Assembly (NCBI RefSeq): GCF_053078305.1
Contig: NZ_CP166879.1
Reading direction: 5' to 3' (one strand)
DNA: 64,000 nucleotides
Position 1 is the first letter of the stretch. Every line of letters begins with the position of its first letter. Made by a program: the position numbers and the translations under genes. Positions 47,158 to 48,130 of the stretch are shown here, piece after piece. The notes under the pieces were generated by a model. The model was not told where the DNA came from. It saw only the letters and a program-made list of their open reading frames with translations, and searched no databases.

Positions 47158-47352
47158 TTATTCGTTTTCAGTCCGGCACAGATGCTTTTCTGCTTTGTCT
47201 GCTGTACAGGATAATGAGCGGAAAAGACAATTCATCATGTTTAGCGCATCTGGTGAACCAATATCACCGCTGTCAATAATCACCTGTAACAAAGACAGGC
47301 TTTCTGTTATCTCGCAGTGGACATTATCGAGTACTTCAACGCAATTATTCAT
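47158..47352 (-). CDS. small hypothetical phage protein (64 aa)
   Basis: Shares a pattern with the 47930..48130 product (...SGD.G..D...C.RS...T..KA). Confidence 0.4.
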   Translation of the reverse strand: MNNCVEVLDNVHCEITESLSLLQVIIDSGDIGSPDALNMMNCLFRSLSCTADKAEKHLCRTENE

Positions 47353-47392
47353 TTTTCATTATCTCCGTTATTCCGGGGGAGGAGCTATGCTG

Positions 47393-47755
47393 TTAATGAT
47401 TAACGCATCTGGTAATATGCCCCTCTTTAATGTAATCGATGCATTCATTCAAAAGTTCATCAATGATTAACTTTCCTGATTCAGTCAGATACTCACCATG
47501 TTGGTTGATACCGACAGCATCCTGGTATGCAGTGCGTATTGCTGTTTCACCATCTTTCCGCCCAAACTCACCACGGGTAACGCCTTCAAATCGTAATAGC
47601 AACTGGTTTATGAACTGTTCTGTTATTTCAATAGTTGTTAACTCTCCATCATGACGCTTTACAGTGAGGAGATTACTTCCTGTTTTTCGTTTCATCCGCC
47701 GCAGTGCTGCAACCGTTATGCGGCGACGATATGCAGAAATGTATTTATCTTTCAT
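47393..47755 (-). CDS. hypothetical phage protein (120 aa)
   Basis: ORF in the leftward early operon. Confidence 0.45.
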   Translation of the reverse strand: MKDKYISAYRRRITVAALRRMKRKTGSNLLTVKRHDGELTTIEITEQFINQLLLRFEGVTRGEFGRKDGETAIRTAYQDAVGINQHGEYLTESGKLIIDELLNECIDYIKEGHITRCVNH

Positions 47756-47929
47756 TTGTTATTTCCCGTATGCCTTTTTGAGAAACAATACTGCAACTGA
47801 CCAGTATCCGGCATCAGCCATTAATAAAGCGGTTTTATAGGCATGTTTGTCTTTCATGTGTCATCCCCATTTTTAAATAGTGAGAATTCACGACCGCAGA
47901 CCGTCATGTTTTTATGTATGATTGTCTGT

Positions 47930-48130
47930 TTAATTTCCTTTATTCGTTCTCAGAGCATCAACATACTCGTAAGCCTTTTCACAGGTTTTATTCATGGAAC
48001 GAATCAGACAAAGTAAGAAATCATCTGTCTCTCCGTTATCACCAGAGTTTTTAAATATAAACTCAAGCATTGACGTGTTTTCTTTTATTTCTGCTGCCAC
48101 TTCCTCAAGCATAATCAGGGGAGTTTTCAT
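47930..48130 (-). CDS. small hypothetical phage protein (66 aa)
   Basis: Paralog-like to the 47158..47352 product. Confidence 0.4.
   Translation of the reverse strand: MKTPLIMLEEVAAEIKENTSMLEFIFKNSGDNGETDDFLLCLIRSMNKTCEKAYEYVDALRTNKGN

Follow-up and report, generated by a model that had tools for sequence, protein, structure and literature searches.

In Bacillus subtilis, two-helix units of the SinI and SinR proteins hook into an intermolecular four-helix bundle, which abolishes DNA binding (PMC3163267). Phage AimX and AimC constitute an antirepressor pair (bioRxiv 10.1101/2025.11.23.689978). Common to both systems is a small, all-helical protein that is homologous to, or mimics, the helical oligomerization module of an XRE regulator. 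Lambda Kil, CIII and Ral and Qin DicB are proteins of ~45–70 amino acids that are encoded in the early leftward operon beside the immunity region and act by binding proteins; none of these effectors is known as a domain of an HTH regulator.

The window analyzed here is a stretch of 64,000 nucleotides containing a lambdoid prophage that adjoins rcsB and carries int, excisionase, ORF6N, cI, cro, helicase/primase and Q genes. Two small ORFs described in the initial annotation are indeed present on its minus strand, at 47158–47352 (64 aa) and 47930–48130 (66 aa); in an E. coli prophage that is 99.2% identical to that of the window, RefSeq labels both products hypothetical proteins. Both belong to the helical-hairpin family phrog_6882 (denoted H6882). 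Like the lambda PL effectors and DicB, the two proteins are small and encoded in an early leftward operon. They differ from the lambda PL effectors in lacking a detectable sequence relationship: at E up to 1, Pfam returned no family for either protein, including the Kil, CIII, Ral and DicB families. The likeness to SinI/SinR is that the H6882 hairpin occurs both free and fused to an HTH_3 domain, oligomerization of the module being assumed by analogy. Unlike SinI, neither protein has a sequence match to PF08671 in Pfam; the H6882 module lies N-terminal to the HTH, whereas that of SinR is C-terminal; and, unlike in the SinI/SinR system, no regulator with an H6882 module is encoded in the same prophage. 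By analogy, a SinI-like functional class would therefore apply only partly, with homology to a regulator module but no cognate regulator in cis.

The assignment of both genes to a leftward early operon, proposed in the initial annotation, agrees with the distribution of operators. A 14-bp palindrome, GATACTTTAGTATC, is found in five copies in the window (up to 2 mismatches), all of them within 48763–48811 and 49497–49566, that is, in the two intergenic regions either side of cI. This arrangement is the classical OL/OR layout, which places the two genes in a repressor-controlled leftward operon that starts at ~48730. The OL/PL-like control region (48731–48815) contains operator copies at 48763–48776 and 48798–48811, a degenerate third copy at ~48735–48750 and a weak putative leftward promoter (TTGCCC-17-TACCAT, read by eye). 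The CI-type repressor gene (48816–49472, minus strand) encodes HTH_3 and Peptidase_S24 domains; its start was taken from RefSeq, and a longer ORF to 49514 would run across an operator. Three operator copies occupy the OR-like region (49497–49566) between cI and a rightward cro-like ORF (49583–49792).

The leftward operon opens with a gene for a 136-aa HTH protein (48320–48730, minus strand), which consists of an N-terminal helical module of ~65 aa, referred to as type A, and an XRE HTH_3 domain at residues 70–124. It is followed on the same strand by a gene for a 63-aa acidic hairpin-type protein of the family phrog_4587 (48127–48318; PHROG E 1.6e-33), and then by the 66-aa gene, whose ATG overlaps the TGA of the 63-aa gene. 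These three genes are tightly packed, with a TAAgATG junction followed by the ATGA overlap, which suggests translational coupling. Further along lie a conserved 32-aa ORF (47759–47857, minus strand), which is present in all related operons examined, and a conserved early gene of 120 aa (47393–47755, minus strand; phrog_1737) that separates the two paralogues. The 64-aa gene is sixth, and a 186-aa protein of phrog_1886 (46425–46985) is encoded seventh, after which the operon continues to xis and int. The slot after the phrog_4587 gene, a habit of the family with no formal criterion behind it, is thus held by the coupled 66-aa gene; the 64-aa gene follows the phrog_1737 gene, outside this canonical slot.

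Several further features of the prophage were observed. The 32-aa ORF encodes MKDKHAYKTALLMADAGYWSVAVLFLKKAYGK and is probably a real small gene; the pattern KDK.AY.TA...L.LRKAYG is kept in Fraca, EKP1, the Klebsiella phage, L007 and L021. Pfam returned no family for it, and RefSeq leaves it unannotated in the near-identical prophage. An Rfam scan of the 46–50 kb region returned no RNA element. A 15-nt direct repeat (GCCAGAAGATGTGGC / GCCGGAAGATGTGGC) is found at 47037–47051 and 49705–49719 on the plus strand, one copy being part of a stem-loop in the 172-bp gap 3′ of the 64-aa gene and the other lying within the cro-like ORF. As the repeat is direct on the DNA, its copies are complementary, not identical, in the two divergent transcripts; we rejected nut-like sites as an explanation, given the wrong orientation for nutL/nutR and a count that we estimate to be near chance expectation. 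Just downstream of Q, positions 54776–54947 on the plus strand match the sok antitoxin RNA (Rfam RF01794, 97.6 bits), where RefSeq records a frameshifted Hok/Gef gene in the near-identical prophage. Also within the prophage, positions 59719–59930 on the plus strand match the sRNA STnc100 over its full length (RF02076, 167.6 bits); the annotation of the near-identical genome has a type I restriction-modification cassette (HsdM/HsdS) nearby. Within the interval 40587–42771, the integrase gene (41482–42771) abuts rcsB (40787–41437), and two naRNA4/REP-type elements are situated between rcsC and rcsB.

Formal alignment of the 64-aa and 66-aa proteins gave significant similarity, as the proposed paralogy predicts. 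BLASTP aligned them with 20 identities over 53 positions (38%; positives 64%; E 6e-9), and their Smith-Waterman score was 79, compared with 23.0 ± 4.4 for shuffled sequences (z = 12.7; none of 5000 shuffles scored as high). Both matched the phrog_6882 profile, the 64-aa protein with residues 1–64 on profile positions 1–63 (E 8.6e-31) and the 66-aa protein with residues 1–63 on the same positions (E 4.5e-38). Together, the BLASTP, shuffle and profile results establish that the paralogy is real. Both proteins also matched the first ~60 positions, the N-terminal half, of the 138-aa profile phrog_27579. Of the shared motifs listed in the initial annotation, SGD.G..D and C..RS...T..KA are found in both proteins, but the C-terminal RT.N holds only in part: CRTENE ends the 64-aa protein and LRTNKGN the 66-aa protein, the latter tail resulting from a 1-nt deletion relative to 63-aa orthologues ending in LRNE. 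Across the family, C-L-x-R-S...T is conserved, whereas the SGD.G loop is common to the two paralogues but not to the family. The conserved core, as defined by the invariant columns of the family alignment, comprises Glu17, Leu22, Ile25, C-L-x-R-S and Thr49 and is present in both. In the same alignment the 64-aa protein is the most divergent member (25–29% identity to the others). Both proteins are acidic, with pI values of 4.45 (64 aa) and 4.64 (66 aa). The family is already catalogued and uncharacterized, and the two proteins are further members of it, ordinary by themselves.

Starts and stops are intact in both ORFs, which are preceded by Shine-Dalgarno-like sequences. The dN/dS ratio of the 66-aa lineage was 0.09–0.16 against three orthologues, with dS up to ~1.2, and that of the 64-aa lineage was 0.14 against the copy in locus L020. 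Judged by these substitution rates, purifying selection acts on both lineages. The duplication in the initial annotation holds in the sense that the genes are paralogues, but it was not a recent or tandem event, which is ruled out by a DNA identity of 52% over aligned codons, saturated synonymous sites and unrelated flanks. These sequence comparisons indicate that the split is old and that the copies were united by mosaic recombination, in different mosaic slots. The 64-aa type is rare, comprising two clusters at 90% identity, and it occurs without a 66-aa copy in L020, L022 and L023; operons that lack the 66-aa copy still have the phrog_4587 gene and the 64-aa copy. Among the loci compared, two phrog_6882 members per operon were seen only in the prophage type of the window, and of 5426 complete E. 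coli genomes, 13 had the two-copy arrangement, with a match across 80% or more of the 1.9-kb query.

AlphaFold2 predicted the 66-aa protein, which alone was modeled directly, to form an antiparallel two-helix hairpin with helices at residues 4–28 and 33–64 (pLDDT 91.5; 9-sequence alignment). The structure prediction suggested in the initial annotation thus yielded a confident fold, but no fold match that points to a function. Foldseek hits in the PDB were limited to generic or designed hairpins (best E 0.8), a fold search of BFVD returned the Klebsiella phage homologue as its sole match, and a sequence-profile search of the PDB gave nothing significant for the phrog_6882 hairpin. NCBIfam gave no match for the small ORFs, nor to PL-effector families. 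PADLOC assigned no family to the 64-, 66- or 63-aa proteins, a result that excludes little since anti-defence proteins are outside its models. Neither these phages nor these genes appear in the text of the mEp(immI) paper (PMC11893012). We infer a non-enzymatic role for the hairpin. That the two genes are protein-coding paralogues, that their products fold as hairpins and that they lie in the leftward operon is close to certain.

To define the family, we searched 1.84 billion representatives exhaustively with a HMMER profile, which yielded 61 proteins at E up to 1e-3; a scan of loci with a single protein as the query returned close relatives only. The named members come from E. coli, Salmonella, a Klebsiella phage and Erwinia, all of them Enterobacterales, and the core residues are kept across these four. 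Phage homologues in phi467, Fraca, SaltyDalty, EKP1 and Klebsiella ST16-OXA48phi5.3 have the same fold, size and early-left prophage context. Several database members are truncated or frameshifted. Three architectures were seen: the free hairpin of ~63–77 aa; a form of 110–150 aa with a second helical hairpin (the 'X module' or a Fraca-type C-terminus); and fusions to one or two XRE HTH_3 domains. At least seven proteins are of the fused type (P0021, P0029, P0036, P0040, P0052, P0055 and P0063), and where the context is known, their genes lie directly downstream of cI, the position that the 136-aa gene occupies in the window. The AlphaFold2 model of a long two-hairpin form (P0014) has four helices, the packing between the hairpins being uncertain (pTM 0.43), so that a pairing face cannot be read from it. 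In EKP1 and L007 the X module has an ORF of its own directly behind the H6882 gene; it is absent from the window.

Two of these loci deserve separate description. 'Elizabethkingia phage EKP1' (OM284015.1; locus L005) has the cI, phrog_4587, H6882 and ORF6N early-left module as found in enterobacterial lambdoid prophages, an odd host assignment for a Flavobacteriia host; it carries two phrog_4587 genes, and its H6882 and X parts are split over overlapping ORFs, maybe by a frameshift. Loci L007 and L008 contain, at 728–1885, a gene for a 385-aa HSDR_N-domain protein between cI and the H6882-HTH gene, in the slot of lambda rexAB; it may be a defence moron.

The hairpin family of the 63-aa gene, phrog_4587, which we denote S4587, shows a parallel relationship to regulators. 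Relatives of the 136-aa protein combine one highly conserved HTH with at least seven mutually dissimilar N-terminal modules of ~60 aa (N-modules A–G), and the 63-aa protein is homologous to the type B N-module (hhalign 98.7%, E 4e-16) and, less strongly, to type D. H6882 is an eighth N-module type, in P0055. In profile-profile comparisons types A and E were related (95%), and H6882 had no detectable relation to any other N-module type. Since S4587 and H6882 are both found fused to an HTH, the free genes that follow the HTH gene in the window both have fused counterparts elsewhere. In L009 and L010 the fused forms are adjacent, H6882-HTH-HTH followed by x-S4587-HTH, and have a common C-terminal HTH subtype; the S4587-containing protein of L009, of 211 aa, is a phrog_4587 module fused to HTH_3. 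Among 37 loci compared, free S4587 and H6882 genes recur in this order as a coupled pair, joined by an ATGA overlap in the window, phi467, Fraca, EKP1 and L019.

The 63-aa protein resembles H6882 in size, acidity, helix-loop-helix form, an acidic S/D/E-rich loop, operon and the duality of free and HTH-fused forms. This neighbor, whose loop reads 'SGDEECDE', was considered as a further paralogue and rejected, as was the first 65 aa of the HTH protein: neither is detectably related to the H6882 proteins (E 0.33 or no hit in BLASTP; shuffle z −0.05 to 1.9; hhalign 0.2%).

The N-module type was perfectly linked to the cI type in 27 loci, many of them close relatives, while the downstream cassettes reassort: module A goes with ci1 (5 loci), C with ci2 (5 loci), D with the phi467-type cI (6 loci) and B with the L024-type (11 loci). 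This linkage may simply be physical adjacency. The DNA homology of the window to other prophages of E. coli breaks at the boundary of N-module and HTH (query position ~1620–1639).

The H6882 hairpin is probably a protein-association module. That the same module stands at the N-terminus of an XRE regulator encoded first after cI suggests pairing with regulators and makes partners or antagonists of regulators the likeliest role of the free copies. By analogy with SinI and SinR, and with AimX and AimC, we propose, tentatively, that the free hairpins modulate early XRE regulators. The hairpin would represent half of a four-helix bundle and would need a second hairpin, which the coupled 63-aa neighbor, another copy of itself or the hairpin of an XRE-type HTH regulator might provide. 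Free copies, which lack a DNA-binding domain of their own, could then act as 'micro-protein' partners or antagonists of hairpin-bearing early regulators, and the early regulators would be tuned by them during the lysis-lysogeny decision; a second, divergent copy may confer a different pairing specificity.

This regulator-pairing proposal is consistent with the fusion of H6882 to HTH_3 in at least seven members, or to a second hairpin in others, with the homology of the adjacent 63-aa protein to N-module type B, and with the adjacency of the two fused forms, sharing an HTH subtype, in L009/L010. The conserved S4587-H6882 ATGA pair, and the retention of S4587 with the 64-aa copy where the 66-aa copy is lost, point in the same direction. 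Against it, the HTH regulator of the window is of type A, a module with no similarity to H6882 (hhalign 0.2%), so that there is no cognate target in cis. The free S4587/H6882 pair co-occurs with four different regulator N-module types; in phage Fraca it forms the first PL genes although no hairpin-HTH regulator is encoded anywhere in the genome, which implies that free hairpins need none in cis; and Klebsiella phage ST16-OXA48phi5.3 has H6882 without S4587. The HTH fusions could, moreover, come simply from rampant mosaic recombination at the locus, and the helical hairpin is a generic fold for which fold searches were uninformative. The partner of H6882 may accordingly be the 63-aa protein, a second copy of H6882, a regulator from a different phage or, finally, a protein of the host.

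The last of these partners leads to the role favored in the initial annotation, that of host-directed early effectors, in which the acidic hairpins would bind to a protein of the host (of the cell-division, protease, RNAP or defence/restriction machinery, for instance) and inhibit or redirect it, in the manner of lambda Kil, CIII and Ral or Qin DicB, the two paralogues acting on different variants or targets. Such a role would suit genes of a PL-type early operon, whose many small neighbors are mosaic and diverge fast, and it would suit the small size and acidity of the proteins; and the very findings that weigh on regulator pairing, namely the free hairpins of Fraca and their free combination with regulator types, are what autonomous effectors would produce. 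We nevertheless place it, as the main rival, somewhat below regulator pairing: Pfam, NCBIfam, PADLOC and the PDB gave no match to a known PL-effector, anti-restriction or defence family and no informative fold, and the HTH-fused relatives would have to be unrelated uses of a sticky module, which leaves the recurrent HTH fusion of both H6882 and the neighbor's module at the head of the operon unexplained.

Interference between prophages is less probable still, and we regard it as a long shot. The free hairpins would mimic the oligomerization module of heteroimmune lambdoid XRE regulators of the P0036 and P0055 types and poison them in trans, to the benefit of the carrier in poly-lysogens or upon superinfection. 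Other prophages of E. coli and Salmonella do have H6882-HTH regulators at the equivalent position, the phage of the window has the free hairpin and no H6882-HTH protein, and the contrast between N-modules strictly linked to cI type and freely reassorting cassettes would fit; but the reading is purely inferential, and that linkage may amount to adjacency. A broader version, to which we attach similarly little probability, is a 'hairpin code' of Enterobacterales lambdoid prophages, in which some eight or more unrelated modules of ~60 aa appear free, in tandem or fused to an XRE HTH at the head of PL, the fused type being tied to the cI type, and the free hairpins antagonize or heterodimerize with early regulators, including those of heteroimmune phages that reside in the same host or superinfect it. 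Finally, it is very improbable that the two ORFs are non-functional relics decaying after domain fission or recombination, for although the region is highly mosaic, the C-terminus of the 66-aa protein is frameshifted and several family members are damaged, the low dN/dS ratios of both lineages at high synonymous divergence, the intact and translationally coupled reading frames with their Shine-Dalgarno-like sequences, and core residues kept across genera all argue otherwise.

What is new here is the relationship between free and HTH-fused H6882 hairpins, which is a useful, testable lead. Extended to the 63-aa neighbor, it provides a cheap and concrete hypothesis for early genes annotated as 'hypothetical', and such early-gene blocks are common in prophages of pathogenic E. 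coli and Salmonella. Should XRE regulators indeed be modulated by these hairpins, lambdoid phages would have a Gram-negative equivalent of SinI/SinR and AimX/AimC, and a 'hairpin code', if true, would add a level of switch control and of conflict between prophages that has not been described before. Modulation of this kind could affect prophage induction in poly-lysogens, including strains that bear Stx phages.
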